From: Candidatus Dormiibacterota bacterium
GTDB lineage: Bacteria; Chloroflexota; Dormibacteria; Aeolococcales; Aeolococcaceae
NCBI GenBank assembly: GCA_963848445.1
Contig: CAWKDT010000020.1
Span: 261,703 to 325,702, forward strand
Reading direction: 5' to 3'
Length of the DNA stretch: 64,000 nt
Of the stretch, positions 14,450 through 46,133 are shown one piece after another. Below the pieces are notes generated by a model. The model was not told the origin of the DNA and did no database searches. It worked only from the letters and a program-made list of their open reading frames with translations. The position numbers and the translations under genes were made by a program. Within the stretch, counting starts at the first letter, position 1. Each line of letters starts with the position of its first letter.

Positions 14450-14457
14450 CCGCTGCG

Positions 14458-15363: not shown

Positions 15364-15385
15364 GTGCCCGCAGTCTACCCGGGCG

Positions 15386-16336: not shown

Positions 16337-16345
16337 CTGCTCTCC

Positions 16346-17700: not shown

Positions 17701-17709
17701 GGCCGTTGC

Positions 17710-18324
17710 TTACGTGACGAACTCGACGAGTGCGTACACGGCAAACGCGAGGACGGTGACGTACGACCACTGTTCCATGATTGCCCGAGCCTGGATGGTC
17801 GTGATCGGCGATGTCCCGCGGATGTGCCCCATCACGAGGCTCAACAGCCACAGGCCGAGGATGATGAACTCAGCCAGGACGACTCCGTACCACACCGTCG
17901 AGATGTCGATGTAGGTGCCGTTCGTCAGGTCCCATCCGAACTGGTACATCAGGAAGATCCGCACGGCGCCGGTGAGAACGACCGCCGCGACGGCGAGCCA
18001 GAGCAGCCCCTTGACCGAACCCACGGCGCTGCTTCTCGAAAGGCCCATCGACGCCGCCCACATCGCGAGCAGCGCGACGACCGGCACCAGGAGACCCACC
18101 AGCGCCAGCACCTCAGGAGGAGCGCTGACGCCGCTCGGGTGCCACATGCCCCCGAAGTTGTTGGTGCGAAGGTACAGGTAGGTGAAGAGGAACGTCAGCT
18201 GCAGTGTGGTGTTGGCGCCCATCAGCAGCCTCGAGCCGAAGAGGAGCGTGCGTTCGCCGCCTGCGATGTCCTCGACGGGCGTCAATCCGGTCGGGCTTGC
18301 GGTTCCGTCGATCATCTCAGGCAC
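17710..18324 (-). CDS. ctaE: cytochrome c oxidase subunit III
   Basis: 204 aa, 5-TM profile typical of short subunit III; sits directly downstream of ctaD. Confidence 0.8.
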   Translation of the reverse strand: MPEMIDGTASPTGLTPVEDIAGGERTLLFGSRLLMGANTTLQLTFLFTYLYLRTNNFGGMWHPSGVSAPPEVLALVGLLVPVVALLAMWAASMGLSRSSAVGSVKGLLWLAVAAVVLTGAVRIFLMYQFGWDLTNGTYIDISTVWYGVVLAEFIILGLWLLSLVMGHIRGTSPITTIQARAIMEQWSYVTVLAFAVYALVEFVT

Positions 18325-20236
18325 CGCTCAGCGCAGGCGTCGCCGGCCCGAGGTCGGTGGCCGGCTTGCCGGTGTCGTAGTCGTACGGCAGCGACCATGA
18401 TGTGGGGACCCTGTCGAAGTTGAACACGGGAACAGGGGTGGGGACCTGCCATTCGACCCCCAGCGACTCCCACGGGTTCGGCGCGGACTTCACCTGCTTG
18501 ACCGCAGTCCAGATGAGAATTCCGAGGAACCACGCCATCGAGGCACCCAGGCCGAAGGCGAACAGCGATGCGGAAACGTTGAGCGGTTGCAGGTAGGCCG
18601 CGTAACTGATCGCGCGGCGGGTCATCCCCATGATGCCGACGGCGATCAGTGAGAGGAACGTGCCGTTGAACGTGATGAACACGGCCCAGAATTGGTATCG
18701 CAGCTGTTTGGTGTCCATGTTGAGGCCGGTCATCTTCGGCAGGAAGTAGACGATGCCCGCCATGAGCGCGAACACCTCGCCTCCCATGATCGTGTAGTGG
18801 AAGTGCGCCTGGACGAAGTAGCTCGCATGGAGTGTGAAGTCGCTGGGCACGTCGGACAGGAAGACGCCCGTGAACCCTCCGATCAGGAAGTTGAAGAAGA
18901 ACGCGCAGATGAAGAGCATCGGTGTGCCGAAACGGATGCGCGCACGCCACATCGCCCCGAGTGCGACGAGGTAGATGATCCCGGTCGGCACCGAGATGAG
19001 CTCCGTCGAGAACATGTAGAAGGGGCGCAGCGACGGAGCGAGGCCGCTCACGAACAGATGGTGTTGCCAGACGGTGAAGCTCAGCAGGCCCACGCCCACC
19101 ATGCCTCCCACCGACACGCGGTACCCCCACAGGGGTCTCCGCGTGAACACAGGCAGCATCTCCATCACGAGACCGAACGCCGGGATGATGAAGATGTAGA
19201 CCTCGGGGTGCCCGAAGAACCAGAAGAGGTTCTCCCAGAGGAACGGTGAGCCGCCGCCTGCCGGCACGAAGAAGGTCGTCTGGTACGAGCGATCCATCGT
19301 CTCCAGCAGGATCGCCCCGACGAGCGCGGGCGCCGCCAGGAGTCCGAGGAACGACGTGACGAGCACCGACCAGACGAAGATCGGCATCTTGGTCATCGGC
19401 ATCCCCGGGGCGCGCTTGGTCATGATCGTCGCGATCATGTTGAAACCCGAGAGGCCGATCGAAAGGCCGATGAGCGCGAACGCCATCAGGTACGAGTCCA
19501 TGCCGAGCACGTTCTGGTCCGAGAGGGGCGCGTAGCCGGTCCAACCGGTGGTGAACCCACCGAGGAACACGGTCGAGAGCAGGATGAGCCCGGCGGGTGG
19601 CAGGAGCCAGAACGTGAGCGCTTCGACCCGGGGGAAGGCCATGTTGCGGGTGCCGATCATGATCGGCACGAAGTAGTTGCCGAAGGGGCCGATGATCGCG
19701 GCCGAGGCCATGAAGATCATCAGCGTGCTGTGCAGGCCGACAAGCGTCAGGTACGACTGCGGGGTGGCGACCGAGGGAACCGGCGTCAGCAGCTCGCTCC
19801 GGATGAACATCGCGCCCAGCCCGCCGATGAACAGGAAGGCCAGGATCATCATCAGGTACTGCATACCGATGACCTTGTGGTCGGTGGTCATCCGGAAGTA
19901 GCGGAGCAGACCGCCACTCTCGCCGTGCAGGTACGCGTTCTCCTCCTCCGTCGGCTTGGGCCGCCCGAGCAGGCGTCCGATCGGATAGTTGAGGAAGCCC
20001 ATTCCCGCGAGGAACCCGACGACTCCGAGGCTGTAGCCGAGCAGGATGCCCGGGTCGGATCCGAGTGAGTTGTCTTCACCGAGCGAGTACGCGATTGCAA
20101 CGCTGCCGATCGCCCATCCGACGATGAAGCCGATCACCGCACCCACCAAACCCAGCAGCAACCCCCAGTCCTGGAGCCGCCTCGAGAGCGTCGGTCCCGG
20201 CCGTATCGGCGCGCGTGCTGGGGCTACAGCATCCAC
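18317..20236 (-). CDS. ctaD: cytochrome c oxidase subunit I (heme-copper oxidase)
   Basis: TTDHKVIGMQYL, FFGHPEVYI, WQHHLF and HFHYTIMGG motifs; 639-aa ORF with an unusually long N-terminal extension carrying two extra predicted TM helices (alternative internal ATG at MGFLNYPIGRL). Confidence 0.9.
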   Translation of the reverse strand: MDAVAPARAPIRPGPTLSRRLQDWGLLLGLVGAVIGFIVGWAIGSVAIAYSLGEDNSLGSDPGILLGYSLGVVGFLAGMGFLNYPIGRLLGRPKPTEEENAYLHGESGGLLRYFRMTTDHKVIGMQYLMMILAFLFIGGLGAMFIRSELLTPVPSVATPQSYLTLVGLHSTLMIFMASAAIIGPFGNYFVPIMIGTRNMAFPRVEALTFWLLPPAGLILLSTVFLGGFTTGWTGYAPLSDQNVLGMDSYLMAFALIGLSIGLSGFNMIATIMTKRAPGMPMTKMPIFVWSVLVTSFLGLLAAPALVGAILLETMDRSYQTTFFVPAGGGSPFLWENLFWFFGHPEVYIFIIPAFGLVMEMLPVFTRRPLWGYRVSVGGMVGVGLLSFTVWQHHLFVSGLAPSLRPFYMFSTELISVPTGIIYLVALGAMWRARIRFGTPMLFICAFFFNFLIGGFTGVFLSDVPSDFTLHASYFVQAHFHYTIMGGEVFALMAGIVYFLPKMTGLNMDTKQLRYQFWAVFITFNGTFLSLIAVGIMGMTRRAISYAAYLQPLNVSASLFAFGLGASMAWFLGILIWTAVKQVKSAPNPWESLGVEWQVPTPVPVFNFDRVPTSWSLPYDYDTGKPATDLGPATPALSGA

Positions 20237-20273
20237 ATCTGCATCCTCTCGTGTGCTTGCGAATCAGACATCT

Positions 20274-21113
20274 TCATCCACCGTAGACCGGCGGTTGGGG
20301 CTCGTACGTGTGGCTGTACGGCACCAGGTACTTCATGATCGGGGCGTCCAGCGCGGTCTGCTGCTGGATCCAGGAGGCGAAGTCCGACTGACTGACGACC
20401 ATGGCGGTGTTGTCGGCCATGTTGCCGTGCCAGAGGCCGCAGAGCTCCGTGCACTGGACTCGGAACGTGCCGATCTGGGTGGGGGTCGCGAACTCGACGT
20501 TGTCGTTCAACGGGACCGCGTCCGCCTTGACACCGAGCGCGTAGAAGTTGAAGGAGTGCACGACGTCCAGCGATGTGACGTTGAACTCGATCTTCTGGTT
20601 GACCGGGAGCACCAGCTGAGCGGTCTCGATCCCGCCGTAGCTTGGATAGCGATACGTGAACCACCACTGCTGTGCGATGACCTGGACCTCGAGCGGCTGA
20701 TCCGTCGAACTGGGCTGCGGGAGCGCGGCCGACAGCGCCGGAACCCCGGCGCCCGGCTGCTCGATGGCGAGCTCGACGGTGCCGTAGGTCGCAAGGCAGA
20801 GCACCAGGACCACTGAGGTGACGATCCATGTCGCCTGGATGCGCGTGTTTCCGCGCAGCGATTGAGCGGAGATCTCACCCTGCAGGGGGGCCGTCCGGTT
20901 CACCACGAGCGAGAAGAGGATGGCCATCAGCACGCCGGCGAAGATCGGCCAGCCGGCCATGGCCAGGACCCTGATCACCGTGCTTTCGTCGGATGCGAGG
21001 TTGGACGCCTGTCCGGGAGGGATCGGCCCCAGGGCCAGCCCGATGTCGCCCGCGACAGCGAGCACGAGCCAGATCCCGGCGAAGAGGCGGATGGCGGTGG
21101 CCCTATTCCTCAT
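20274..21113 (-). CDS. ctaC: cytochrome c oxidase subunit II (CuA subunit; no cytochrome c domain)
   Basis: VVHSFNFYALGVKADAVPL … CTELCGLWHGNM CuA motif; two N-terminal TM helices; no CxxCH. Confidence 0.85.
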   Translation of the reverse strand: MRNRATAIRLFAGIWLVLAVAGDIGLALGPIPPGQASNLASDESTVIRVLAMAGWPIFAGVLMAILFSLVVNRTAPLQGEISAQSLRGNTRIQATWIVTSVVLVLCLATYGTVELAIEQPGAGVPALSAALPQPSSTDQPLEVQVIAQQWWFTYRYPSYGGIETAQLVLPVNQKIEFNVTSLDVVHSFNFYALGVKADAVPLNDNVEFATPTQIGTFRVQCTELCGLWHGNMADNTAMVVSQSDFASWIQQQTALDAPIMKYLVPYSHTYEPQPPVYGG

Positions 21114-21116
21114 CGC

Positions 21117-21746
21117 TCAACCCACATGGAGCTCGCCGGCCATATAGCCGAGCGTCTGCATCGGGCCGCCGTTGCCGTACAGCGTCCCCGCGGCGCATGG
21201 GACGAAGCACTGCCAGCGGTAGACCCCGGCCGTATCCGGCACGACGAAGTCGAACGTCACGACGATGGTGGCGCCGGCCGGCGCATTGTCGGCCACACCT
21301 TGCAGCGGAACGCTGAGACCCAGGTCGGGGATGGTGAAGGTATGCGCAGGGAGGCTTGGATCGATCGCCTTCATGACCTTCCCGTTGACGGTCATCTCAT
21401 TGTTGATCGTCCCGCGCACCAGGCCGAGGTACTCGTTCCGGAGGCCGGACGAGCCGTCCTGCTGATCGATGGTCATGTGGACCACCGCCCCCTTCGGAAC
21501 GCTCAGATACGTGGTCGGCAGGTATCCGACCCAGTTCGGGTGCTCACCGTGCCCCTGCCCCGCATCGCCGACCGCCGCGACCGTGGTGAGGGTGATGTTC
21601 ACCACCGGGCGCCCCTGGATGCTCGAGGACGTCGTGCTCGCGACGATCGTCGGGGGTGTGGGGTTCAGGAACCGCGTCACGAAGAAGCCGATGATCACGC
21701 CGGCCACGGCGAGGCCCGCCACGACGATCCAGGATCTCAATCGCAT
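21117..21746 (-). CDS. membrane-anchored CoxB-like cupredoxin-domain protein with degenerate CuA site
   Basis: N-terminal TM (WIVVAGLAVAGVIIGFFV); C-terminal part parallels subunit II (HTFTIPDLG…AGVYRWQCFVPC…GPMQ…M) but lacks the Glu and second His of the CuA ligand set. Confidence 0.55.
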   Translation of the reverse strand: MRLRSWIVVAGLAVAGVIIGFFVTRFLNPTPPTIVASTTSSSIQGRPVVNITLTTVAAVGDAGQGHGEHPNWVGYLPTTYLSVPKGAVVHMTIDQQDGSSGLRNEYLGLVRGTINNEMTVNGKVMKAIDPSLPAHTFTIPDLGLSVPLQGVADNAPAGATIVVTFDFVVPDTAGVYRWQCFVPCAAGTLYGNGGPMQTLGYMAGELHVG

Positions 21747-21762
21747 GCTTGCCTCACCCCTT

Positions 21763-21897
21763 TTATGAATGAGCGACGTCGTGAAAACAGTCGATCAGGG
21801 CGAGCGCCACTCCGGCCGAGACGCCGCACAGGGCGACGACGACCGCAGGCGCGCTCCGTCCAGCCCGTGACAGGGCGGGTGCCTTGGATCCGGGCAT
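21763..21897 (-). CDS. unlisted 44-aa small membrane protein (MPGSKAPALSRAGRSAPAVVVALCGVSAGVALALIDCFHDVAHS)
   Basis: Hand-translated; ATG preceded by GGAGAA; one hydrophobic helix; lies immediately upstream of the cupredoxin/cta operon; below the 60-aa ORF-track cutoff. Confidence 0.3.
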   Translation of the reverse strand: MPGSKAPALSRAGRSAPAVVVALCGVSAGVALALIDCFHDVAHS

Positions 21898-22034
21898 CCA
21901 GTTCTCCGCTCAACAGGATTGCCGGTAACAAAGTCGACATGATGGCTGTCTCAATAGGGAACGTCAAGACCTCCCCACAGTCATCCCTGGCTCAAAACGA
22001 CATTCGTCGCGCCGTGGCGCCGCCGGCGACCCTG

Positions 22035-24743
22035 TCAGCTGGGCCGGCGGCTGACATGATCGATGCCGCCCGAGCCCTGCGCCAGTGACGCGATGTCGTA
22101 CCGGTCGCGGGCACCCGTGCGGCGCAGCAGGAGGTCCGCGACGAGGCCGGTCCAGCCGGTCTGATGCGACGCGCCGAGCCCCCGGCCGGTGTCGGCGTGG
22201 AAGTACTCGTGGAACGGGATGAGCCCCGCGAGATCCGGCCGGGCGTAGAGGCCGGTGCCCGCGACGACCGGTCGCGTCCCCGTGGCGTCCTCCAGGAAGA
22301 GGCCGGTCAGCCGCCCGGCGATCGCATCGGCGACGGCGCCGAGGTGCTCCTGGCGGCCGGATCCGCTGGGGTATTCCACCGTCCAGTCGTCGCCGAGGAA
22401 CCGGTGGTAGCAATGGAGTGCCTCGACAATGAGGTGATTGACGGGGAACCAGACCGGCCCCCGCCAGTTCGAGTTCCCCCCGAAAAGGCGGGTCGTCGAT
22501 TCGGCGGGCTCGTAGTCGAGCCGCGCGATGGTCCCCTCGATGTCGAGCTCGAGCGGATGGTCAGCGTGGAATCGGGAGAGGGCGCGGAGCCCGTGCGGGC
22601 TCAGGAACTCCTCCTCGTCGAGCACGCGGTGGAGGATCCGCCGCAGACGGTCGGGATCGACGATGGCGAGCAGCCGGTTCTGGCGCTCGTTCGGTTCGAC
22701 GGCGAGCGCGATGGCGGCCGCAAAGCCTGGCTTGACCGCGACGAACCGGCGCAGCCGTTCGGCGAACTCAGGAAGCACCCCGAGTGTGTCGTGCCCGAGG
22801 GTGGTGGCCGCGCAGAGCGGGATGAGACCCACGATCGACCGCGCCGGGATCGGAATTCGCGATCCGTCGGCGAGGTGCAGGCTGTCGTAGTAGAAGCCCG
22901 AATCGTCGTCCCACAACCCCTGGTCGTTCATCGCGGTGGCGATGGCGGCGAAGTGCTCGAAGAACTTCGTCGCGACGTCCTCGTACGTGCGGTCGTATGC
23001 GGCGAGGATGAGCGCGGTCTCGAGAAGGTTCAGCGAGTACATCGCCATCCACGCGGTGCCGTCCGACTGCTCGAGGTGCCCGCCGGTGGGCGGCATCTCG
23101 GACCTGTTGAACGGGCCAATGTTGTCGAGCCCGAGAAATCCGCCTTCGAAGATGTTGTTGCCCTCGGCGTCCTCGCGGTTGACCCACCATGTGAAATTGA
23201 TGAGCAGCTTGTGGAAGACGCGCGCGAGAAACCGATGATCGGTCGCGCCGTCGATCTCGAACACGCGAAGCGCCGCCCACGCGTGCACCGGAGGGTTGAC
23301 GTCGTCGAAGGACCATTCGTATGCCGGCAGCTGGCCATCAACATGCATGTACCACTCACGGCACAGCAGGATGAGCTGCTGCTTGGCGAACTCGGGGTCG
23401 ACGTGGGCGAGGGCGACGCACTGAAACCCGAGGTCCCACGCCGCGAACCACGGGTACTCCCACTTGTCGGGCATCGAGATCACGTCGGCGGTGTCGACAT
23501 GCCGCCATCCGGCGTTGCGGCCGGTGAGACGCTGTGCCGGCGGCGTCGGTTCCTCGGGGTCACCGTCGAGCCAGCGGGCGACGTTGTAGTGATAGAACTG
23601 CTTCGACCACAGCATCCCCGCCAGCGCCTGGCGCGCGACAAGCCGCTCGTCCGGGGTGAGGGTCGCCGGGAGCACGGTCGCGTAGAACGCGTCGGCCTCA
23701 CTCCGGCGCCGGGCCAGCACGTCGCCGGTACCGGCGTCTCCCGGGGCATCGCGTCGACCGAGGCGGAGCCTGATCGCGGCGGTGCCGCCGGGCGTCACAG
23801 TCAGGACGTAGTGCAGCGCCGCCTTCGTGCCGGTGAGCGCCGGGTTGACCGTCGCCGCGCCGCCGACCACGTGGTCGTTGATCCCGTCCTTGGGATACGC
23901 GCTCCGGCCGGCCGATCCCCACAGTCGCATCGCGTTCGTCTCGTTGTCGCAGAACAAGGGCGTATGCGTCCCGTCGCCGGTGAGCGACCACCGGCCGAGG
24001 TCCGGGTGATCCGCGACGATGCTCTCCGCGTCCCACGCAAGCGATGGGACGATGCTGTCACGGTCCCACGCCCATGTGTTCCGGAACCACAGCGTCGGCA
24101 GCGCGTGCAGGATGGCAGTCTCGCTGCCGGCATTGCGCACGCGCAGCTCGCACACGATGTCGTCGGGGGACGTCTTCGCGTAGTCGACCGTGATGTCCCA
24201 GAACCCCGTGTCGAGCACGCCTGTGTCGGCGAGCTCGTACTCGGGGTCGAGCGTGGTGCGGCGCCCGTTCTCATCGACGAGATCCTGGTACGGAAACGGG
24301 CGCTGGGGGTAGAGGTATCGCCACCGCATCCATGAATGCGTCGGGGTCGAGTCGACGTACCACCAGTACTCCTTGGCGTCCTCACCGTGGTTGCCCTGAG
24401 GTCCCGTCAGCCCGAAGATTCGTTCCTTGAGGATCGGATCGACACCGTTCCAGAACGCAAAGGCCATGCAGAGCTGCTGATGATCGTCACAGATGCCGCC
24501 GAGCCCATCCTCGCTCCAGCGAAACGCCCGCGAGCGAGCATGGTCGTGGGGAAGGTAGTTCCACGCATCCCCGTTCTCGCTGTAGTCCTCACGCACGGTC
24601 CCCCACGCCCGCTCGCTGAGGTACGGGCCCCAGCGGCGCCAGGCAGCGGGATCGTCACGGAGCCGCCGGCGCTCAGGGTCCTCGTTGCTCACGTCCGGCG
24701 GCGACGATACCACCCCGGTCCCGACTGAATGCTCACACCGCAT
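22035..24743 (-). CDS. GH63-family glycoside hydrolase (processing α-glucosidase / mannosyl-/glucosyl-glycerate hydrolase-like (α/α)6 enzyme)
   Basis: About 900 aa; C-terminal FHEYFHADTGRGLGASHQTGWTGLVADLL and EWSFDDVNPPVHAWA motifs typical of GH63/MGH; start uncertain (ATG 24743 or GTG 24692) because a pseudogene remnant occupies the opposite strand here. Confidence 0.7.
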   Translation of the reverse strand: MRCEHSVGTGVVSSPPDVSNEDPERRRLRDDPAAWRRWGPYLSERAWGTVREDYSENGDAWNYLPHDHARSRAFRWSEDGLGGICDDHQQLCMAFAFWNGVDPILKERIFGLTGPQGNHGEDAKEYWWYVDSTPTHSWMRWRYLYPQRPFPYQDLVDENGRRTTLDPEYELADTGVLDTGFWDITVDYAKTSPDDIVCELRVRNAGSETAILHALPTLWFRNTWAWDRDSIVPSLAWDAESIVADHPDLGRWSLTGDGTHTPLFCDNETNAMRLWGSAGRSAYPKDGINDHVVGGAATVNPALTGTKAALHYVLTVTPGGTAAIRLRLGRRDAPGDAGTGDVLARRRSEADAFYATVLPATLTPDERLVARQALAGMLWSKQFYHYNVARWLDGDPEEPTPPAQRLTGRNAGWRHVDTADVISMPDKWEYPWFAAWDLGFQCVALAHVDPEFAKQQLILLCREWYMHVDGQLPAYEWSFDDVNPPVHAWAALRVFEIDGATDHRFLARVFHKLLINFTWWVNREDAEGNNIFEGGFLGLDNIGPFNRSEMPPTGGHLEQSDGTAWMAMYSLNLLETALILAAYDRTYEDVATKFFEHFAAIATAMNDQGLWDDDSGFYYDSLHLADGSRIPIPARSIVGLIPLCAATTLGHDTLGVLPEFAERLRRFVAVKPGFAAAIALAVEPNERQNRLLAIVDPDRLRRILHRVLDEEEFLSPHGLRALSRFHADHPLELDIEGTIARLDYEPAESTTRLFGGNSNWRGPVWFPVNHLIVEALHCYHRFLGDDWTVEYPSGSGRQEHLGAVADAIAGRLTGLFLEDATGTRPVVAGTGLYARPDLAGLIPFHEYFHADTGRGLGASHQTGWTGLVADLLLRRTGARDRYDIASLAQGSGGIDHVSRRPS

Positions 24744-25023
24744 CGAGATGCGCTTGACTCGCCGGACGGGACGCGGTATCTCGACTTCAACAGCCAGTTG
24801 GTGGGCGTGAACATCGGCCACGGGACAAGCGTGTCGTGGCGGCGATCGCACGCCAGGCCGAGCGACTCGCTTACATCAGCCCCTTCATTGCGCACGAGCC
24901 CCGGGCGCTGCTTGGAACGTGATGACCAACCCGCCGCTGCGCATCCCCGAAGAGCAGCTCGCAGCGGGATTCGCGGTCATCGACGAGGCTCTGGCGATCA
25001 CCGATCGATCCGTCAGGCCGTAG
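24729..25023 (+). pseudogene. decayed class-III (ω-)aminotransferase remnant (N-terminal about 60 aa + frameshift + C-terminal about 30 aa; the central about 330 codons are deleted)
   Basis: Frame 0: …GTRYLDFNSQLVGVNIGHG; +2 frame continues DKRVVAAIARQAERLAYISPFIAHEPRALLGT*; then a third fragment …NPPLRIPEEQLAAGFAVIDEALAITDRSVRP* ending at 25023. Confidence 0.6.
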
Positions 25024-36069: not shown

Positions 36070-37092
36070 ATGTCCATTCGAGGGCGCTCTCGCTACGATG
36101 CCCGCATGGCCCTCACGGTCGTGTCACCGGCTCCCGGCAGCACCTCGACAGCGCCGCGGAGCGAGGGCGTGCCGCCGCACGCGTACTTCGTCGGCAGCGC
36201 GGTCTTTCACTACCTCGGCCCGTCATTTGCCGTCCTGCTCTTCGCGCGCGTCGACGTTCTCGGCGTCGCCTGGCTCCGGATCGCAACCGCCGGCCTGCTC
36301 TTCGCCATCTGGCGCCGGCCCTGGCGTGCCTTCGTGCGTCTGGATCGCGACGGCCGCGTCTTGATCATCGGTCTGGGGGCGGTGCTGGCCGTGATGAACG
36401 CGTGCTTCTACCTGGCGATCAGCCGCCTGCCGCTCGCCACGGTCGCCGCGATCGAGTTCATCGGCCCCATCGTGCTCGCTGCGATCGGCGCCCGGGTGCC
36501 TCGCAACGTCATGGCAGTCGCTGTCGCGGTCGCGGGCGTGTACCTGCTGACGCACGTCCGGTTCGTCGGTGACCCGCTGAGCATCGGCTTCGCCCTCGCG
36601 AATGCCGCGTTGTTCGCGCTGTACATCGTCCTGGCCCACCGCATCGCCCGGCGCTCCTCCATGGGTGGTGTCGACGGCCTGGCCGCGGCCATGATGTTCG
36701 CGTTCGTGTTCGTCTCGCCGATCGGTCTGGGTGGCGCGCTGCGCGTTTTCACCGACCCGGTTGCCCTCGCCGCGGGCGCCGGCGTCGGTGTGACCTCCTC
36801 CGTGATCCCGTACGTGTGCGATCAGCTGGCGATGGCGCGTCTTCCGCGCGCCACCTACGCCCTGTTCGTGGCGTTGCTTCCCGCCACCGCGACGGTGATC
36901 GGGGTCGTCGTGCTGCGACAGTTCCCATCCATCACTGACCTTGCCGGCATCGTGCTCGTGATGATCGGCGTGGGAATGCATCGCGCCCACCCGGACGACG
37001 TCGCGGAACGCCGGCACGATCACTCAACCACATCGCCTTCTCGGACACTCGCGCCGCCGGACTCCGTCGATCGCGCCACCGGGATTTCTTGA
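36070..37092 (+). CDS. DMT-superfamily (EamA/RhtA-like) transporter
   Basis: 10 TM helices, two EamA-like halves; start may be the internal ATG at 36106. Confidence 0.75.
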   Translation: MSIRGRSRYDARMALTVVSPAPGSTSTAPRSEGVPPHAYFVGSAVFHYLGPSFAVLLFARVDVLGVAWLRIATAGLLFAIWRRPWRAFVRLDRDGRVLIIGLGAVLAVMNACFYLAISRLPLATVAAIEFIGPIVLAAIGARVPRNVMAVAVAVAGVYLLTHVRFVGDPLSIGFALANAALFALYIVLAHRIARRSSMGGVDGLAAAMMFAFVFVSPIGLGGALRVFTDPVALAAGAGVGVTSSVIPYVCDQLAMARLPRATYALFVALLPATATVIGVVVLRQFPSITDLAGIVLVMIGVGMHRAHPDDVAERRHDHSTTSPSRTLAPPDSVDRATGIS

Positions 37093-37219
37093 CGGACTCG
37101 TGCGCCGGCCGCGGAGGCGCGCCGCTGTGCTCGTGGCGATGGGCGACCATACGTCGGATGGACCTGGTCTTTGGGACCGACGCTCCCTTTCGCCGCCGTC
37201 CCTGAGGCGCTGCCGCCGC

Positions 37220-38497
37220 ATGCAGATACAGTGGACTTGGCGACGGGTGCTCCTCGTCGTCCTGCTCGTCGCCGGCGCGGCGTACTTCGTGGTGGCGGCG
37301 GTGAAGGAGATGCGAGCCCCCGAGGCCGGCGTCCACGATTTCGGTGTCTACTACCGCGCCGCCGTCGCCATCACTCACGGCGGGCGCCTGTACGCGACCC
37401 CACCCGCGTGCTGCTTCAACGTCGCGGCGATGACCGGCTACACCTACCCGCCCGTCTTCGCCGCGCTCTTGATTCCGTTGACGTGGCTGCCCGTCGACGA
37501 TGCGGGCCGCGTGTGGCTGGTCGTCTGCTACGTGTCGCTGCTGGTCGTGCTGCTCGCGGGAGTGCGCGCGGCACCGCAACCGCTCGACCGCGAGTCGATC
37601 CTGTGGCTCGGTGTCGTATTCCTCGTCGCGGGCTCGGTGGCATTCGCGCTCTACGAGATGCAGGCCACGCCGCTCGTCGTCGCACTCGAGGCGATCTTCG
37701 CGCTGTGCGTCATCCGCAACAGGTTCGTCTTCGTCGGAGGACTCTGCCTTGCGCTCGCCGCGGCGTTCAAGGTGTCACCGATCCTGATTGCGCCGGCCAT
37801 CCTCCTGCTGCCGCGGCCAGGCTCGTATCGGGCGCTCGCGGGGTTGATCGGTGGGCTGGTGGCGACAGGACTGCTGAGCCTCGCGCTCACCCACGAGGCA
37901 ACGGACTATGTATTTCACGTGTTGCCCAGCTTCTCGGGTGGTGTCGTGTCGCTGAACAATCTCTCGCTGCCCGGGGTGATCCTGCGCGCGCTCGTCGCCG
38001 CCGGCCTGCATCCGGCGGCCTCACTGGACATCCCCTTCCTGACACTCGAGATCGCCGCGCTCGTTGCGACGTGGCTGTTGTGCCGGGGGATCGGCGGCGC
38101 CGCCGGCCGCGCGTTGATGATCGCCGGGCTCCTCGCCGTGGTCCCGATCGTGCAGGGCGTCACCTGGGATCACCACCTGATCGCCGACATCCTGGTGCTG
38201 ATCCTGATGGTGCCGTACCTTCGCACCTGGTCGCCGGCGTGGGTCCTCGCCGTCGGCGGTACGATCGTCGCAACCGCGAACCAGCACGTCCTCGAGAACT
38301 GGCTTGCCACCCACGGTGTCGCGGCCCCCTACAACGCGTTCACCTACGCGGCCTTCGTGGCTGCGGCGTCCTGCAACCTCATCGGCATGTGCGGGCTCTG
38401 GATCGCGGTGGTGATCACCGCGCGCCGGATGCGCGCCGGTGCTGCTGCCGATCCCAGGCCCGGCGTGCGCGTATCGCGGCCCGCGGTAACGACCTGA
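37220..38497 (+). CDS. GT87 / DUF2029-family polytopic membrane glycosyl(mannosyl)transferase
   Basis: Multi-TM protein with the GT-C/DUF2029 pattern (YTYPPVFAALLIPLTWL, FKVSPILIAPAILLLP). Confidence 0.6.
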   Translation: MQIQWTWRRVLLVVLLVAGAAYFVVAAVKEMRAPEAGVHDFGVYYRAAVAITHGGRLYATPPACCFNVAAMTGYTYPPVFAALLIPLTWLPVDDAGRVWLVVCYVSLLVVLLAGVRAAPQPLDRESILWLGVVFLVAGSVAFALYEMQATPLVVALEAIFALCVIRNRFVFVGGLCLALAAAFKVSPILIAPAILLLPRPGSYRALAGLIGGLVATGLLSLALTHEATDYVFHVLPSFSGGVVSLNNLSLPGVILRALVAAGLHPAASLDIPFLTLEIAALVATWLLCRGIGGAAGRALMIAGLLAVVPIVQGVTWDHHLIADILVLILMVPYLRTWSPAWVLAVGGTIVATANQHVLENWLATHGVAAPYNAFTYAAFVAAASCNLIGMCGLWIAVVITARRMRAGAAADPRPGVRVSRPAVTT

Positions 38498-38754: not shown

Positions 38755-39285
38755 ATGAGCACCCTCATCGCCTACGCGAGCAAGCACGGTTCCACCGCGG
38801 AGATCGCTGAACGGATTGCGGCGGCGATTCGCGGCGAAGGACATGACGTGCAGGCGCTGCGGGCATCGGCCGTGCGAGACGTCACCGGCTTCGGAGCGGT
38901 GGTCGCCGGCAGTGCCGTGTACATGGGTCACTGGATGAAGGATGCGACCGAATTCATCAGCCGCCGGCGGTCTCAGCTCGGGTCGCGGCCCCTCTGGCTC
39001 TTCAGCAGCGGCCCGGTGGGCCCCAGAGCGCTGCCCGAAGCCGCGGAGATCGCGATCTACCGCAAGCAGTTCGATGTCAAAGACCACCGCACCTTCGACG
39101 GCGCCCTCGACAAGAAGGAGTTGTCCCTGTCGGAGCGAATGATGATCAGAGCGGTGAAGGCCCCCTACGGTGACTACCGGAAGTGGGAGGACATCGACGC
39201 GTGGGCGATGGCGATCGCCACGTGGTTGGCGCTCGCAGCGCAGTCTCCTGAGCCGGTGACCGCGGGTGCAGGGCCGTGGCAGTAG
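38755..39285 (+). CDS. flavodoxin-like protein
   Basis: N-terminus MSTLIAYASKHGSTAEIAERIA (flavodoxin phosphate-binding loop T/SxxGxT-like) and α/β pattern. Confidence 0.7.
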   Translation: MSTLIAYASKHGSTAEIAERIAAAIRGEGHDVQALRASAVRDVTGFGAVVAGSAVYMGHWMKDATEFISRRRSQLGSRPLWLFSSGPVGPRALPEAAEIAIYRKQFDVKDHRTFDGALDKKELSLSERMMIRAVKAPYGDYRKWEDIDAWAMAIATWLALAAQSPEPVTAGAGPWQ

Positions 39286-39476: not shown

Positions 39477-42413
39477 CTACTGAAACCAGCCCTCGATATC
39501 GATCACGGCGTTGACCGTGCCCGCGCTGTTGAAGAGCCCCACATCGCCGTCATGCGCGTCGGCGGTGGTATCGAGCTGCACCACCGCGAGGTTGGGCAGG
39601 ACCTGGTTCGCCGCGAGGTTGAGATCCGACGCGTGGGGATGGCTCAGGTTCGCCGGGTACAGCACGAGGTAGGTCGGCTGCGTCGAGAGGATCCCGGTCA
39701 GGTTGGCGATCACGGCGACCGCCGGAGTCCCGGCGGAGGTGGGCGGCACCCCACCCACACCCGCGACGCCGACGGTGCGGATCGTGCCCGCGCCCAATGT
39801 CTGTCCGGCGCATGGCAGATGCGATCCAGGCCGGGTGTCGCAGATGCGACTTGGCCCGATCGCCTGGTACTGCGATCCTGCCACCGCAGACGCGTCACCG
39901 AACCAGCCATTGGCATCGAGGATCACATTGATCGTGCCCGCGGCATTGTAGACGCAGACGGACGTGGCGTTGCCACCGGGGGCGGACGGCCCGAGCGCAA
40001 CCATGACGCGATTCGCCACCACGGCTCCGGCCGCGAGGTTGAGCGTCGAAAATGGCGGCGCATGAGTCCCGACGTACGTGCATGCGCCACTCGCGTTGGT
40101 AGGGAAAACGCTCAGGAACGTCGGCGAAGTCCCTGCCACACCCGTTAGATTGAGCACTGCAGCCTGCGCGGTGCCATCGCCTGGGATCCCGCTCGCTCCC
40201 GTCACCGCGACCCTGATGGCCGTGCCCGCATGCAATGCGGCGTTGGAACCGCAGCCACCGCGCGTATCGCACACTCGCACCGGGGCGATCGGATGAAACT
40301 CGCCGGCTGCGGTGCTCGATGCCGGGGGCTCGAAATACCCCTCGACGTCCGCGACGACGTTGACCGTCCCGAGCGCGTTGTAGATGCTCACCTCGCGCTG
40401 GCTGTCCGAGGCGCCGCTCTGGCCCAGCGTGACGGTCACGAGATTCGCGCTAGCCGTGTGTGCAGCGAAGTTGAGGTTCGACGCCTGCGGGCGTCCCGTC
40501 CCGTTGGGAAACACCGTCAGCAGGCTGAACGAGTTGTCAAAGACCGCAGTGGTGTTGATCACGACAGCCGTCGCATCAGCGGGGATCGGGTCTGTGCCGC
40601 CTGGCAGACCGGTGACGCCCGTGATCTGCAGGGTCCGCGTGGCTCCGGGCCCCAGCGCCCCCGGACCGCACTGGATACATGAGCCCGAGCGAGTGTCGAG
40701 GATGCGGAACGGCGTGACCGGCACGTAGTTGGCGAGGCTCGTGTAGATGTACCCGGCGCCGGCGGTGAGCGGGCTCGTGCCAAGCGTGTCGGACACCTGC
40801 ACGCTCACATAGCCGGCGGGGCCAGGCGGTGTCGTGAACGTGAACGTGGTGCCGGTGATCGAGGCGGGGGTGACGGAGACGCTACCGATCGTTGCCGTCA
40901 TCCCTGACTTGAACCCGACCCCCGAGACGGTCACCGTCTGACCGCCGGCGATCGGACCGGCGGCGGGCGTGACGGCGGTGATGTTGGGGCCGGACGGCAC
41001 GGCGTTCACCCGGTCACCGCCCTCCACGAAGATCATCCCGTTGGATGCGGACGGCGACGTGAAGTGATTGCTGCCGCTGATCGAGTAGCCGGCGAGCATG
41101 TTCCCGGTGCCGGCGTCGTACTGGTACAGCGTGTCGCTCACTGCGCTGACCGCCCAGACGCCGCCACCGACCACGATCGGTGGCTTGTCCGACGCCTGGC
41201 TCGTGTTGTGCCAGCCGAGGGAGAAGTTGTTGTTCGAGGCGGCGATCTGCACCGCCCGCAGCCCGTCACTGCATCCTACGAACACGGTCTCCACGCCGCC
41301 GACCATCGCGTACGCGAGGCTGCCGAAGGCCGCGTCGCTCGTCGCCGAGCACACCCGGTGGGACGCGATCCCGCCGCTGATGTGTCCGAGGGATGTGCTG
41401 TCGAGCAGGTAGCCCATGCCGCTCTTGCCCACCTCGAACACGCGGTTGGACGGGAGCTGCAGCGGCGTGGTCGATCCAAGATCGGCGTCGCTCGCGTTGT
41501 CCTCCCACCATGTGGGGCCGCCGCCGTGGTTTGCGTCGGTGACGCCGCTCGGAGCGAAGTAGTCGGCGACACTCAGCGTGGTGGGCGTGAGCTCGACGAC
41601 CGCATCGCTGTCGTCGTAGGCGTCGGTGCTGTTGGTGTGATTGCTATTACCGGTCGCGACGTACACGTCCCCGCCGGCGTCGATCGATGCGCCGCCGGCT
41701 GCCCACACGCCGGCCTCCATGTCCGTCGAGTTGTCCGCCGCGGACGCCCACCACTGCACCGTCCCGCTGCCCGTCTCCGGATACGACATGACGTAACCGC
41801 GATATCCGTCGGTGGCATTGTTCGGGTTGGTGCAGTCCCCGGCGAGGCCTCCCAGCGTCGCGTACACCTCGCCGCCGGCGACGGTCAGGGCGCCGCGCTG
41901 CTGCTGGTAGTTGGCGTCGAAGTTGATCCCGCTGCGGTTGCCGGGGTCGATGTTCACCTGCCGCGTGACCGCCCCGGCGAGCGTCAGCGTGACGAGGTCG
42001 AACTCGAAGTGCGTCGGACTGTCCTGGATCTCGGCGACCACGTAGATGTTGCCGGCGTCGATAACCGGCGTTCCGGTGATGCCCAGCGGCATGATGTCGC
42101 CACACGGGAAGTTGGCGGTGCGTGGTGTTCCGATGTGTTTGGTCCACTGAACCTGGCCCGTCGTCGCGTTGAGGGAATACACGGTGTCGTTCTCGGTGGC
42201 GACGACCACCTGGTTCCCCACGATCAGGGGCTGGCCGTAGAGCTGGCCGTCCAGCGCCGGAGAGGTCCACGGCGCCGTGCCGGCAAGGGCCTGGTCCGTG
42301 GTGTCGTCGCCCTGACGGGTGTTGTTCCCGTGATAGGTCGTCCAGTCCGCGGCGGCCTGCGTCAAGGCCAGCAGCGGCGCCACGGCCGCCAGGATGATCG
42401 GGAACCGGCGCAC
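39477..42413 (-). CDS. large secreted protein: PQQ-like β-propeller + IPT/TIG domain + three C-terminal about 110-aa repeats (xPxRxxDTR… type)
   Basis: GTG 42413 gives signal peptide MRRFPIILAAVAPLLALTQAAA|DW; propeller blades (TVYSLNATTGQVQWTK, LYQYDAGTGNMLAGY); IPT (PNITAVTPAAGPIAGGQTVTVSGVGF); 3 repeats each starting …P(V/I)xP(F/V/S)R(I/V)(L/C)DTR and ending …GWF/GYF. Confidence 0.7.
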   Translation of the reverse strand: MRRFPIILAAVAPLLALTQAAADWTTYHGNNTRQGDDTTDQALAGTAPWTSPALDGQLYGQPLIVGNQVVVATENDTVYSLNATTGQVQWTKHIGTPRTANFPCGDIMPLGITGTPVIDAGNIYVVAEIQDSPTHFEFDLVTLTLAGAVTRQVNIDPGNRSGINFDANYQQQRGALTVAGGEVYATLGGLAGDCTNPNNATDGYRGYVMSYPETGSGTVQWWASAADNSTDMEAGVWAAGGASIDAGGDVYVATGNSNHTNSTDAYDDSDAVVELTPTTLSVADYFAPSGVTDANHGGGPTWWEDNASDADLGSTTPLQLPSNRVFEVGKSGMGYLLDSTSLGHISGGIASHRVCSATSDAAFGSLAYAMVGGVETVFVGCSDGLRAVQIAASNNNFSLGWHNTSQASDKPPIVVGGGVWAVSAVSDTLYQYDAGTGNMLAGYSISGSNHFTSPSASNGMIFVEGGDRVNAVPSGPNITAVTPAAGPIAGGQTVTVSGVGFKSGMTATIGSVSVTPASITGTTFTFTTPPGPAGYVSVQVSDTLGTSPLTAGAGYIYTSLANYVPVTPFRILDTRSGSCIQCGPGALGPGATRTLQITGVTGLPGGTDPIPADATAVVINTTAVFDNSFSLLTVFPNGTGRPQASNLNFAAHTASANLVTVTLGQSGASDSQREVSIYNALGTVNVVADVEGYFEPPASSTAAGEFHPIAPVRVCDTRGGCGSNAALHAGTAIRVAVTGASGIPGDGTAQAAVLNLTGVAGTSPTFLSVFPTNASGACTYVGTHAPPFSTLNLAAGAVVANRVMVALGPSAPGGNATSVCVYNAAGTINVILDANGWFGDASAVAGSQYQAIGPSRICDTRPGSHLPCAGQTLGAGTIRTVGVAGVGGVPPTSAGTPAVAVIANLTGILSTQPTYLVLYPANLSHPHASDLNLAANQVLPNLAVVQLDTTADAHDGDVGLFNSAGTVNAVIDIEGWFQ
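39480..40515. repeat. three in-frame tandem repeats (about 330 bp each) encoding the C-terminal 'DTR' domains
   Basis: The same about 110-aa module occurs three times at the C-terminus of the 39477–42413 protein. Confidence 0.5.
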
Positions 42414-42684
42414 TCGAGCATTTTCACCCTTGACCGGCCGCGGGGATGGCGTTCCCGTCACGGCGCACCGCTCCTCGACCGCCGGTCGGCTTCGGCCGGC
42501 GGCTCTCAGGCGAGGAGCGGTCCGACTTTCGCGGCAGCCTGCCGGTCGCAGAGTAGGATCGCCTGATGGCAACGCCGCTCCGCCAGGATGCACGGAACAC
42601 CGCCGCGGTGACCGGGCGTTAGCAGTCTCACGTTTCCGAGGCACGAGGCGGTAGTGCCTCGTCCTCCAGGCGACCGGTAGACCG

Positions 42685-45081
42685 TTGCGCATCGCGTTCG
42701 TCTCGTCCGCCGTGCCCCGCCGTTGCGGCATCGCCACCTTCTCCGCCGACCTCATCGCCGCGGTGCATGCAAGCGATCACACAGTGACGTGCCGCATCGC
42801 CGCGATCGAGGAGCCGGCCGTGCTCCGGCCGTATGGATCGGACGTCCGGTGGCGGATACGGCAGGGCGATCCGGAGAGCTACCGCGCCGCGGCGCGGGCG
42901 ATCAACACCTCGAACGCGGACGTGGTGAATGTGCAACACGAGTTCGGTCTCTACGGCACGTGGACGCAACCCAAATTCGTCGCGGGCCGGTGGACCGAGA
43001 GCGTCTATGACGACTGTCTCCAGCCGTTCCTCGAGGAGCTGCGCAAACCCGTCGTCGTGACCATGCACACCGTGCTGCCGCAGCCGACTCCCTCGATTCG
43101 AGCGACGGTTCGCGCCATCGCCGAGCGCTGCGACGAACTCATCGTGATGGCATCGACCGCTGTTGATCTGCTCGCGAACGACTACGAGCTCGTGAAGCCT
43201 CCTCGGGTCATCCCCCACGGGATGCCGGTGATCGAGCCGCATGGACGTCTGCGATTCAAGGACAAGCTCGGGGTCAAGGGGCGCACGATCATCTCGACCT
43301 TCGGTCTTGTGGACCCACGCAAAGGGCTCCAGTACATGATCGAAGCCATGTCCCGGGTGATCGCTGAGCACCCGGACGCCCTTTACCTCATTGCCGGACA
43401 GACCCATCCGGATCTTCTGCGCGCGCAGGGCGAGGAGTACCGGAATTCGCTGGTCGCGCAGATACGGTCGCTGCAACTCGACGATCACGTCGCGTTCATC
43501 GACACCTACATGACCCAGCGCGACATCATCGAACTGCTGCTCGCGACCGACGTCTATGTGACGCCGTACCTCGACCCCAACCAGATCACGAGCGGCACCC
43601 TTTCGTACGCCCTGGGCGCCGGAAAGGCGGTCGTCTCGACCCGGTACCTGCACGCTGCCGAGGCGCTGAGCGATGGCCGCGGTGTGCTCGTCGACTTCCG
43701 TGATGCGGGACAGCTGGCACATGCGGTGACGGCCATCCTCGGCGACACGATCGCGAAGAAAGCGCTGGAGGATGCGGCGTTCGCATATGCGCATAACGCG
43801 ACATGGCCTCGATCAGCCCAGGCCTTCCTGGGGGTGATGAGCGAGGCCGCAACGATGCGGAAATCTCGTGGCGTCTCGCCGGCGGTGGCCACGCACGACA
43901 TGGGTCGGCGCTCGAATGAGAATCCGATCCTCTCAGCAGCCGACGTTCGCCCGTCACTCCCCGGTCTCGAGGTCATCTCGGTGTTCAACGCCGCGGCGGC
44001 GCGGGTCGGCGACGAGGTGGTGCTGCTCATCCGTGTCGGTGAGCGACCGAGCCTCGGCGTGGTCCCTCCGGCCGACGCCCTCACGCTCGACCTGACGCGC
44101 CCCGAGCCCGAGATCAAGCCGCTCGGTCCCGGCCACGGAGCCGACGACGTCATCGGAATCGCCTTCCTGGACGCCAAGCAGGAGCCGGCGCGCGTCGTGG
44201 AGGTGTTCATCCCGAGGGACACGCCCGGGCTCGACCTCAGCGATCCGCGTGCGATTCGCTATCGCAATCTCACCGGCGGTTTCACGGCCGCGGCGGACGA
44301 CGTCAGCGACTTCCTCACCCAGATGTCGCACCTGCGCGTCGCGCGCAGCCACGACGGCATCCACTTCGAAGTCGAGAACGAGCCCGCGGTGGTGCCGGCA
44401 AATCGTTTCGAGGAGTACGGCTGCGAGGATCCGCGGGCCACGCTCATCGACGGCGTCTGGCATATCACCTATGTCTCCGTGAGCCGGATCGGCATCAGCA
44501 CCAGCCGGCTCACGACCACGGACTTCCGCTCATTCGAACGGCACGGGGTCATGTTCCTGCCCGATCACAAGGACGTCGTGCTGCTTCCCGGCCGGGTCGG
44601 AGGACGGTACGCAGCGCTGACGCGGCCGATGCCCCAGTCGTTCGGCCGCGTGCTCGGCATCTGGATCGCGTTCTCCGACGATCTGGTCCACTGGGGTGAG
44701 CACGCGCCGCTTGCACTGCCGCGGCCCGGCATGTGGGATGAGCTGCGTACCGGGGCGAGCGCCGTCCCATTCCGCGTCGAACAAGGCTGGCTCGAGATCT
44801 ACCACGGCGTCGATCGCAACACGCGGTATGCGCTCGGCGGCCTGCTGCTCGACGGCGACGACCCGAGCCGGGTGATCGCCCGGTCCCCGGAGCCGATCCT
44901 CGTGCCGACCGCGCCATACGAGCGCGACGGCCTCTACAACGACGTCGTGTTCACCTGCGGGCACGTCCCGCTCGATCCCGAGGGGAAGGACATCCGTGTC
45001 TACTACGGTGCCGCCGACAGCTGCCTCGCGGTGGCGGACTTCACCGTTCGAGACATTCTTGACCAAATGACTCCGTGCTGA
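42685..45081 (+). CDS. bifunctional-looking fusion: N-terminal GT4 glycosyltransferase + C-terminal GH130-family (mannoside phosphorylase/β-mannosidase-like) domain
   Basis: GT4 region MRIAFVSS…VTPYLDPNQITSGTLSYALGAGKAVVST (EX7E-like); GH130 5-bladed-propeller motifs in the C-terminal 330 aa (WHITYVSV, EIYHGVD, VVFTCGHV, YYGAADSCLAVADF). Confidence 0.75.
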   Translation: MRIAFVSSAVPRRCGIATFSADLIAAVHASDHTVTCRIAAIEEPAVLRPYGSDVRWRIRQGDPESYRAAARAINTSNADVVNVQHEFGLYGTWTQPKFVAGRWTESVYDDCLQPFLEELRKPVVVTMHTVLPQPTPSIRATVRAIAERCDELIVMASTAVDLLANDYELVKPPRVIPHGMPVIEPHGRLRFKDKLGVKGRTIISTFGLVDPRKGLQYMIEAMSRVIAEHPDALYLIAGQTHPDLLRAQGEEYRNSLVAQIRSLQLDDHVAFIDTYMTQRDIIELLLATDVYVTPYLDPNQITSGTLSYALGAGKAVVSTRYLHAAEALSDGRGVLVDFRDAGQLAHAVTAILGDTIAKKALEDAAFAYAHNATWPRSAQAFLGVMSEAATMRKSRGVSPAVATHDMGRRSNENPILSAADVRPSLPGLEVISVFNAAAARVGDEVVLLIRVGERPSLGVVPPADALTLDLTRPEPEIKPLGPGHGADDVIGIAFLDAKQEPARVVEVFIPRDTPGLDLSDPRAIRYRNLTGGFTAAADDVSDFLTQMSHLRVARSHDGIHFEVENEPAVVPANRFEEYGCEDPRATLIDGVWHITYVSVSRIGISTSRLTTTDFRSFERHGVMFLPDHKDVVLLPGRVGGRYAALTRPMPQSFGRVLGIWIAFSDDLVHWGEHAPLALPRPGMWDELRTGASAVPFRVEQGWLEIYHGVDRNTRYALGGLLLDGDDPSRVIARSPEPILVPTAPYERDGLYNDVVFTCGHVPLDPEGKDIRVYYGAADSCLAVADFTVRDILDQMTPC

Positions 45082-46133
45082 GGCAGATCGCACGTCTCGG
45101 TCGCTCCGTAGCCTTCGCCGGGCCTCGAGCCATCGCCATCGCGGTGTACGCGGATGAACGCGACCAGCTGATACGGGCGCAGGAGGCCGGCTACGAAGGC
45201 GTCGCCTGCGTGGATGATGCGGCCCGCGCCCTCGAGCTGTACTGCGACCTCTGGGAGGCGACGCGGCTGCCGTGGGTGATGCGCTGGTGCGAGGGGCTTC
45301 TCGACTTCGTGCTTGCGATGCAGGAGCCGGACGGGCGCTGGCTGAACTTCATCCGCGACTGGGACGGAACGCCCAACCGCGGAGGCCGCACCTCCGTTGC
45401 GGGGGGCGGCTTCTGGCAGGCCCGCGCGTTGATGGCGCTCATTCGCGCGTCAGCAGTCCTCGATGACCGGCGCATCGGGATTGCCGTGGCGCATGCCGTG
45501 CCCCATATCCGTGCGGCGACCGCCGTGCCGGCTGACGTCCGCGCCCTGCATATCAGGGCCGCCCTCGCGACCCTCGGCAGCGCGGACGATCATGGTCTTG
45601 TCGAGATCCTGCCCGAATGGGTCGAGGAACTCCTGAGCTGCCGGGAGGGCGACGTGCTCATGAACTCACCCGACGAGCGAGGCCGCCCTCACCTGTGGGG
45701 TCATATCCAGGAAGGCGTCCTCGCCGACGTCGCCGCGCGCATGAATCGCGATGAGGTGCTCGAGGTCGCGCGGCGAAGCGCCGAGCTGGTGTTCACAGGT
45801 GTGGTCACCGGTGGGTTCCGCGAGCCGCACGTTCAGCCGTACGACGTCGCCTCCTCCGTCTATTCGCTGGGTAGGCTTGCGGAGGTGACCGGTGCACCGG
45901 CCTATCGCGCACTCGCCGGCGACGCATGCGCATGGTTTCTCGGGCGCAACCCCGCCGGTGCGCCGATCTACGACGAGGCTTCCGGACGGGTACACGACGG
46001 TGTCGACGAAGGACGCGTGAACGCACACTCGGGCGCCGAGTCCAACATCGTCGGTGCCCAGGCGCTCTTCGACGTGGCGACCGCGGTTGCCCGCCGACTC
46101 ACCGTTGCCGAGGGTCTCCCCGGCTCAGCCTGA
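45075..46133 (+). CDS. hypothetical protein, possibly (α/α)6-barrel (AGE/epimerase-like) carbohydrate-active enzyme
   Basis: GTG overlaps the previous stop; no confidently recognisable motif, fold guess only (GVACVDDAARALELY, PDGRWLNFIRDWDG). Confidence 0.45.
   Translation: MLRQIARLGRSVAFAGPRAIAIAVYADERDQLIRAQEAGYEGVACVDDAARALELYCDLWEATRLPWVMRWCEGLLDFVLAMQEPDGRWLNFIRDWDGTPNRGGRTSVAGGGFWQARALMALIRASAVLDDRRIGIAVAHAVPHIRAATAVPADVRALHIRAALATLGSADDHGLVEILPEWVEELLSCREGDVLMNSPDERGRPHLWGHIQEGVLADVAARMNRDEVLEVARRSAELVFTGVVTGGFREPHVQPYDVASSVYSLGRLAEVTGAPAYRALAGDACAWFLGRNPAGAPIYDEASGRVHDGVDEGRVNAHSGAESNIVGAQALFDVATAVARRLTVAEGLPGSA

Follow-up and report, generated by a model that had tools for sequence, protein, structure and literature searches.

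The stretch of DNA analyzed here (the window) comprises 64,000 nucleotides of contig CAWKDT010000020.1 (positions 261,703 to 325,702) from the Candidatus Dormiibacterota assembly GCA_963848445.1, an uncultured soil bacterium, and our subject is a minus-strand gene within it that encodes a secreted protein of 978 residues. The protein consists of a signal peptide, a beta-propeller, an IPT/TIG domain and three tandem repeats (Table 1). This four-part architecture, first proposed in a preliminary description of the sequence, was borne out by Pfam matches to PQQ_2 and TIG, by motif and BLASTP comparisons of the repeats and by inspection of the signal peptide. The repeat domain is confined to this one gene within the window. 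Residue numbering throughout refers to the 978-residue form, which is translated from the GTG codon at 42413.

Table 1. Features of the window discussed in the text, in window coordinates.
Feature	Position	Strand	Basis or remark
Coding sequence (CDS) of the preliminary description	39477..42413	(-)	GTG start, 978 residues plus stop
Alternative CDS start	GTG at 42461	(-)	In-frame, 994 residues
Sec-type signal peptide, residues 1-22	42348..42413	(-)	Inspection
BamB/PQQ_2-type beta-propeller, approximately residues 25-470	41004..42341	(-)	Pfam, weak PDB BamB matches
IPT/TIG immunoglobulin-like (Ig-like) domain, residues 476-543	40785..40988	(-)	Pfam
Repeat 1, residues 563-705 including linker	40299..40727	(-)
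Repeat 2, residues 706-848	39870..40298	(-)	Arg in ANRV
Repeat 3, residues 849-978	39480..39869	(-)	Asp in ASDLN
Flavodoxin	38755-39285		Flanking gene, Pfam-confirmed
GT4-GH130 fusion	42685-45081	(+)	Pfam Glycos_transf_1 and Glyco_hydro_130
352-residue open reading frame (ORF)	45075-46133	(+)	Next after GT4-GH130, no Pfam match
EamA transporter and GT87-family membrane glycosyltransferase	36070-38497	(+)	Back to back, 8 nt apart
Regulator, 1184 residues	53245-56799	(+)	Double zinc ribbon, adenylate/guanylate cyclase, AAA_16 ATPase, TPR
GH63/MGH1-like hydrolase	22035-24851		Just past the 14000-22000 region

The putative signal peptide, MRRFPIILAAVAPLLALTQAAA, has AAA at positions -3 to -1 and would be cleaved before DW (by inspection). 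The propeller matched Pfam PQQ_2 (PF13360) with 46.0 bits against a cutoff of 27.6 in two stretches, the best spanning residues 45-186. Among PDB sequences it matched BamB only, and weakly (expectation value (E) 8e-5), and an NCBIfam scan of the window protein returned BamB models only, none of them over the repeats. Assignment to the PQQ dehydrogenases (PF01011) was rejected because the match scored 14 bits against a cutoff of 26.7 and covered 37 residues only, where the propeller of these enzymes spans roughly 600. With PF01011 below its cutoff, the label "polyvinyl alcohol dehydrogenase" that JGI attaches to homologues is unsupported. Owing to this sub-cutoff score and the weak PDB matches to BamB, the predicted propeller is classed as BamB-like. 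The TIG domain (PF01833) was recognized with 46.2 bits against a cutoff of 20.9 (E 4.6e-12). The block formed by TIG and the three repeats (the triplet) was also found behind a GHL15 N-terminal domain in protein P0151 (55-58% identity), and the same propeller occurs in homologues in which an FG-GAP, dockerin or PF26607 tail replaces the triplet. The protein is therefore assembled from exchangeable modules.

Each repeat has a DTR motif near its start (residues 573, 716, and 859) and G[YW]F near its end (residues 692, 836, and 975). This spacing gives a period of 143 residues and therefore a domain of about 130 residues plus a linker of about 10 residues, rather than the repeat of about 110 residues reported before. 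The three copies are 38-42% identical to one another with pairwise BLASTP E values of 4e-20 to 3e-23, far beyond chance, and the loops connecting their strands differ both in length and in sequence. Of the units of a broad sample, 93% have R-x-x-D-T-R. In a profile made from an alignment of 40 single repeat units (A2), P6, R8, A52, G117, D124, and G127 are invariant and D11, T12, R13, N56, T58, S81, N84, N93, and N114 are nearly so. The paired cysteines noted previously are present as described. A cysteine immediately precedes DTR in 18% of the broad sample and is partnered by a second cysteine within 16 residues in 85 of 86 cases. This pattern indicates a putative disulfide that is optional and lineage-specific, and not a signature of the family.

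The repeats almost always come in threes or sixes. About 135 of the 150 best representatives contain exactly three copies and the others six, five or four, the six-copy proteins being two blocks of three with a gap between them. Three copies were also counted in 59 of the 75 complete ORFs of 67 genome loci. ORFs that have one or two copies mostly adjoin a further partial ORF of that locus, as would be the case for triplets split by frameshifts. In loci L011, L014, L016, L025, L030, L062, and L063 the repeats of a triplet are distributed between two neighboring ORFs that differ in frame (one plus two copies, or one plus one). These loci come mostly from MFD-series assemblies of metagenome-assembled genomes (MAGs), and the split triplets are probably frameshift errors or pseudogenes rather than proteins that truly have one or two copies. 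Exactly three copies are also present in the Rhs and cutinase proteins of cultured strains. Moreover, hidden Markov models specific for each of the three positions assigned the correct index to 152 of 201 held-out units (33% expected by chance), from which it follows that the three positions are old and partly differentiated. The functional unit is the block of three repeats and not the single repeat.

Prediction of the repeat structure, as the preliminary description had suggested, was done with AlphaFold2 and the A2 alignment. Repeat 3 gave an eight-strand sandwich with a predicted local distance difference test score (pLDDT) of 96.9 and a predicted template modeling score (pTM) of 0.89, and its predicted fold is a jelly-roll. 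The model of the 419-residue triplet had a pLDDT of 92.9 and a pTM of 0.92, a value not expected of flexibly linked domains and thus one that points to a compact unit. With the sheets assigned by strand order, strands 1, 3, 6, and 8 (BIDG) carry hydrophobic runs on both faces and strands 2, 4, 5, and 7 (CHEF) alternate, a pattern that fits packing of the BIDG sheet against another domain. Most of the conserved polar residues are on the BIDG strands. Because this sheet is apparently buried, these residues, including R-x-x-D-T-R, may build an inter-domain core rather than a ligand site. The motif may hold the assembly together instead of touching a ligand.

Contacts between the repeats were also suggested by covariation. 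Position 90 of the profile is Arg in repeat 2 and Leu in repeats 1 and 3, whereas position 78 is Asp in repeat 3 and Asn in repeats 1 and 2. Among 288 triplets, 178 had both the Arg and the Asp, 106 had neither and 4 were discordant (Fisher test, 2e-74, and 4e-33 among representatives at <=50% identity). On a neighbor-joining tree built without both columns, a rough tree, each state switched about 8-9 times. These data point to a predicted inter-repeat salt bridge between Arg90 and Asp78 rather than to one old split. The window protein has both residues (Table 1). All three copies seem to come together in a single compact head, which would have a pseudo-threefold axis.

The preliminary description had been unable to place the repeat in a named family, and the searches agreed. 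Pfam-A and NCBIfam gave no match over residues 563-978, a Pfam search with the three repeats gave 0 matches at E<=10, and a Pfam scan of 51 triplets gave scattered noise only. Searched against PDB sequences, the repeat profile returned two chance-level matches, to TAXI TRAP solute-binding proteins (E 0.43), and a Foldseek search of PDB gave nothing at E<=1e-3. As judged by these searches, the repeat is a new domain family that has neither a Pfam-A nor an NCBIfam name. Note that a five-copy homologue, P0241, has a sub-threshold match to DUF7709 (32.2 bits vs 33.3) at residues 631-669. It was seen in this one repeat and in no other unit, and it may reflect either a distant relationship of DUF7709 to the family or noise.

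Although unnamed, the family is very common. The A2 profile, searched against 1.84 billion cluster representatives (50% identity), matched 37,301 proteins at E<=1e-3 and 27,938 at E<=1e-10. The names of 10 cluster representatives were "hypothetical protein" or none, and a literature search for the DTR motif or for a new actinobacterial wall-binding module returned nothing relevant. A first homologue search with a single repeat gave only fragments of <=251 residues, which were used for the alignment and not for architectures.

The full-length homologues (70-99% identity) have NCBI names that derive from Candidatus Dormibacterota MAGs. Loci of close relatives, found with a three-sequence alignment that reached close relatives only, are mostly from Dormibacterota, often several per genome, with others from Chloroflexia and Acidimicrobiales. 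The triplet is also encoded on plasmids of cultured Actinomycetota, namely Streptomyces, Arthrobacter, Paenarthrobacter, Curtobacterium, and Aeromicrobium, where PGAP labels the proteins "hypothetical" or names them after a partner (LamG-like, cutinase, PKD, RHS). All of the named hosts (Dormibacterota, Chloroflexia, Acidimicrobiales, Streptomyces, Arthrobacter, and Curtobacterium) belong to Terrabacteria lineages. Chloroflexota have been placed in the "Terrabacteria" superphylum with other monoderms, Dormibacterota being their closest lineage (PMC10608941). Triplet genes were also seen on contigs labeled Candidatus Saccharimonadales, Binatia, and Acidiferrales (loci L002, L065 (DATLRB01...), L048, L055 (DASPQV01...), and L057 (DATLRX01...)). 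L002 encodes a full-length orthologue that is 76% identical to the window protein in repeat 1 and 80% in the propeller. For the loci labeled Binatia and Acidiferrales, the match to repeat 1 is at 43-54%. These SMAG bins appear to have unreliable taxon labels. An origin of the triplet as a phage receptor-binding or endolysin module was considered and dropped because 50,697 phage records gave no triplet match.

The partners of the triplet are diverse. In 54 large representatives they were TIG (14), fn3 (7), propellers of the PQQ, SGL, NHL, FG-GAP, RCC1, and Kelch types, S8 and kumamolisin peptidases, PKD, He_PIG, NosD, and GH18. A set of 120 shorter proteins found with a triplet profile added CHAP (7), Peptidase_M23 (4), GH25 (1), sortase (1), CAP (8), and DUF3761 (6), together with fn3; about 70 of these proteins lacked any Pfam domain. 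The assignments of CHAP, M23, GH25, sortase, and CAP held up in direct scans. In the CHAP, M23, and GH25 proteins, which represent three unrelated peptidoglycan hydrolase folds, the triplet is the sole non-catalytic module, and LysM, SH3b, SLH, and PG_binding were absent from the listed partner proteins. In P0434, a membrane-anchor-like N-terminus is followed by the triplet and then by a sortase catalytic domain, a combination of which no description was found. On the actinobacterial side, a Paenarthrobacter plasmid protein consists of a signal peptide, the triplet (residues 70-448), and RHS repeats, and a Curtobacterium protein of a signal peptide, the triplet (residues 47-418), and a cutinase. 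The layout of signal peptide, triplet, and RHS is like that of WapA, a wall-associated Bacillus protein.

Whether the repeats are always extracellular and always C-terminal had been raised as a question. Of 268 proteins with at least three copies, 169 have the triplet at the C-terminus and 50 have it within 100 residues of the N-terminus; another 40 consist of essentially nothing else, and in 9 it is internal. Of the 247 proteins that have at least 30 residues before the first repeat, 160 have a hydrophobic segment at the N-terminus. The triplet thus seems extracellular as far as can be judged, and it is usually but not always C-terminal and almost never internal.

Two start codons compete for the window gene, the minus-strand ORF of which ends with its stop codon at 39477. 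The GTG at 42413, which gives the 978-residue translation, has a weaker AAGGGTG upstream. The in-frame GTG at 42461 is preceded by GAGGAG 9 nt upstream (window 42459-42476, minus strand) and adds 16 residues, VTGTPSPRPVKGENAR. The resulting 994 residues are also the length of the database protein P0121, which is 99% identical to the window protein. As the true start, the upstream codon is no less likely than the other.

The flanking genes were as described previously, in that Pfam confirmed a flavodoxin on one side and the GT4-GH130 fusion on the other, but this order is not conserved in orthologues. The flanks are kept solely in the closest relative (L001); nine further loci, in which this propeller is present at 74-80% identity, lack them. 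The neighborhood was therefore rejected as a functional clue, since an order that is not conserved carries no functional information. The GT4-GH130 gene and the 352-residue ORF form a pair divergent from the propeller gene, and their 7-nt overlap suggests translational coupling. Beyond the flanking genes lies the segment encoding the EamA transporter and the GT87-family enzyme, where the AT skew is strongly negative (-0.32), in keeping with membrane-protein genes. The large regulator elsewhere in the window is unrelated to the triplet protein. The region 14000-22000 has a lower G+C content (0.64-0.68) and a positive AT skew, with ordinary genes that on the minus strand include those for a DHDPS-family enzyme and cytochrome oxidase subunit I. 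The whole window was free of RNA genes and tRNAs in Rfam and tRNA scans.

We consider it an even call that the window protein is a surface-displayed propeller held on the cell wall by a pseudo-trimeric jelly-roll anchor. The BamB-like propeller would be the working part, TIG a spacer, and the C-terminal triplet the anchor. Within one chain, three jelly-rolls of about 130 residues would fold into a compact pseudo-threefold head, a single-chain counterpart of a homotrimeric fiber tip or of the TNF/C1q head. The head would bind non-covalently to peptidoglycan or to a wall-linked polymer and so keep the propeller on the cell surface, and the same three-domain block is in fact reused at one terminus or the other of many further secreted proteins of Dormibacterota, Chloroflexota, and Actinomycetota. 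This assignment was made because the triplet is a fixed terminal unit, its secreted cargo is diverse and it is the sole accessory of three classes of peptidoglycan hydrolases. The threefold geometry, a wall ligand and action on the cell's own wall rather than a foreign one are inferred. The preliminary suggestion of a ligand- or wall-binding module is thus still the best reading of the partner domains, with the amendments that the unit is the triplet and that binding rests on association.

Several points weigh against a wall anchor. The binding function would follow from the association of partner domains, and among the 120 proteins listed peptidoglycan hydrolases are a minority (about 10%), most partners being propellers, Ig-like arrays, proteases, and unannotated sequence. 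Moreover, the nearest relatives in fold, which are the Bd2133 tip and the carbohydrate-binding modules (CBMs), bind foreign surfaces or substrates and not the wall of their own cell. Both samples in which the prevalence of three copies was counted favor multi-copy proteins, since the ranking was by summed score or the search itself used a triplet, and the Arg/Asp covariation may be inflated by tree error and shared ancestry. A wider proposal, that the triplet is a general and hitherto unrecognized wall-anchoring system of Actinomycetota, Chloroflexota, and Dormibacterota and fills the role that SLH and CWB2 have in Firmicutes, is put forward tentatively.

The main rival is a lectin- or adhesin-like head for foreign material, such as a polysaccharide substrate, other cells, or soil polymers, which would direct the enzyme, toxin, or propeller it is fused with toward that material instead of tethering it to the cell's own wall. 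Cutinase, GH18, GHL15, the S8 and kumamolisin proteases, and the Rhs toxin are the partners that such a head might be expected to have, the variable loops resemble specificity loops, and the fold neighbors (the Bd2133 tip and the CBMs) favor it as well. Nevertheless, most partners are not carbohydrate-active enzymes, and the fusions to CHAP, M23, GH25, and sortase suggest a wall ligand, though possibly the wall of a competitor. The absence of the triplet from the phage records also speaks against it, since receptor-binding tips and lysin binding domains are common there. We therefore regard a lectin-like head as unlikely.

Less likely are a purely structural or a sorting role. As a structural or assembly module, the triplet would be the rigid end of a stalk or a self-associating unit of a lattice or oligomer that has no specific small ligand. 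The compact triplet model, the TIG or fn3 domain that often adjoins it, the conserved polar residues on a seemingly buried sheet and the 40 of 268 proteins that contain little beyond the triplet would all suit such a module, but we think it improbable because it leaves unexplained why the triplet is the only extra module of unrelated peptidoglycan hydrolases and of a sortase, and why it occupies the terminal position usual for wall-binding modules. A role in export or sorting, like that of the C-terminal beta-sandwich domains to which dedicated secretion systems respond, would account for the very diverse cargo and for the C-terminal location in 63% of the sampled proteins. However, 19% have the triplet at the N-terminus, directly after the signal peptide, its three domains and about 400 residues far exceed the size of known sorting domains, and dedicated machinery is not apparent in the unconserved neighborhood, and hence a sorting function seems very improbable.

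The repeat represents a new domain family, the task of which is probably of a known kind. The domain is found in tens of thousands of protein clusters, yet it is unnamed and has no sequence match to solved structures, and the names that PGAP and JGI give its carriers are "hypothetical" or that of the partner domain. If the triplet is the wall anchor of Actinomycetota and related lineages, it would provide a simple sequence rule for recognizing surface-displayed proteins in Streptomyces, Arthrobacter, Chloroflexota, and uncultured Dormibacterota, and it would explain the targeting of the CHAP, M23, and GH25 wall hydrolases. As such an anchor, the triplet could also serve as a compact handle in surface display and in the design of wall-targeted enzymes. 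On the wider proposal, the domain would define the surface proteome of Actinomycetota, Chloroflexota, and Dormibacterota, the uncultured Dormibacterota included, and its ligand would reveal a conserved wall component of these phyla.

Several known systems invite comparison with the triplet. The C-terminal tip of Bd2133 from the Bdellovibrio bacteriovorus MAT fiber (PDB 8OK3, 8OND) shows a sequence identity of 6-12%, a level at which homology is unproven, and it is a homotrimer of three chains on a beta-helix fiber, whereas the triplet has its three copies in one chain. CBM6, CBM35, and CBM36 have the jelly-roll fold in common with the triplet unit, although Pfam CBM profiles gave no match to the window protein, the repeats, or the 51 triplets. 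Moreover, CBMs occur singly or in variable number together with glycoside hydrolases, whereas the triplet has a fixed three copies and is mostly attached to other protein types. The trimeric heads of TNF and C1q are built of jelly-roll protomers around a threefold axis, and their engineered single-chain versions (PDB 5HZF, 4ZCH) align over 187-194 residues of the triplet model.

The closest parallels in design are the SLH and CWB2 wall anchors, in both of which three tandem motifs fold into a pseudo-trimer or trefoil (PMC8056022). Neither family includes the triplet, which has no Pfam match to SLH (PF00395) or CWB2 (PF04122) and a predicted jelly-roll fold. Like the triplet, SLH of Bacillus and Paenibacillus is terminal and is found on many secreted proteins that include wall enzymes. 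Its three motifs form one pseudo-trimer and attach non-covalently to the wall (PMC8056022), two properties that the jelly-roll triplet would share. SLH motifs, however, are short, and conserved positive residues mediate their binding to pyruvylated wall polysaccharide. The triplet unit, in contrast, is a jelly-roll of 130 residues. CWB2 of Clostridioides difficile has three non-redundant copies arranged as a trefoil or triangular prism and is common to about 29 surface proteins, the enzymatic domains of which vary (PMC8056022). It has a toprim-like fold, binds the polymer PSII, and is unrelated to the triplet in sequence and fold. The triplet, if it anchors proteins as proposed, would be a third independent wall anchor made of exactly three copies around a common axis, in this case of jelly-rolls.

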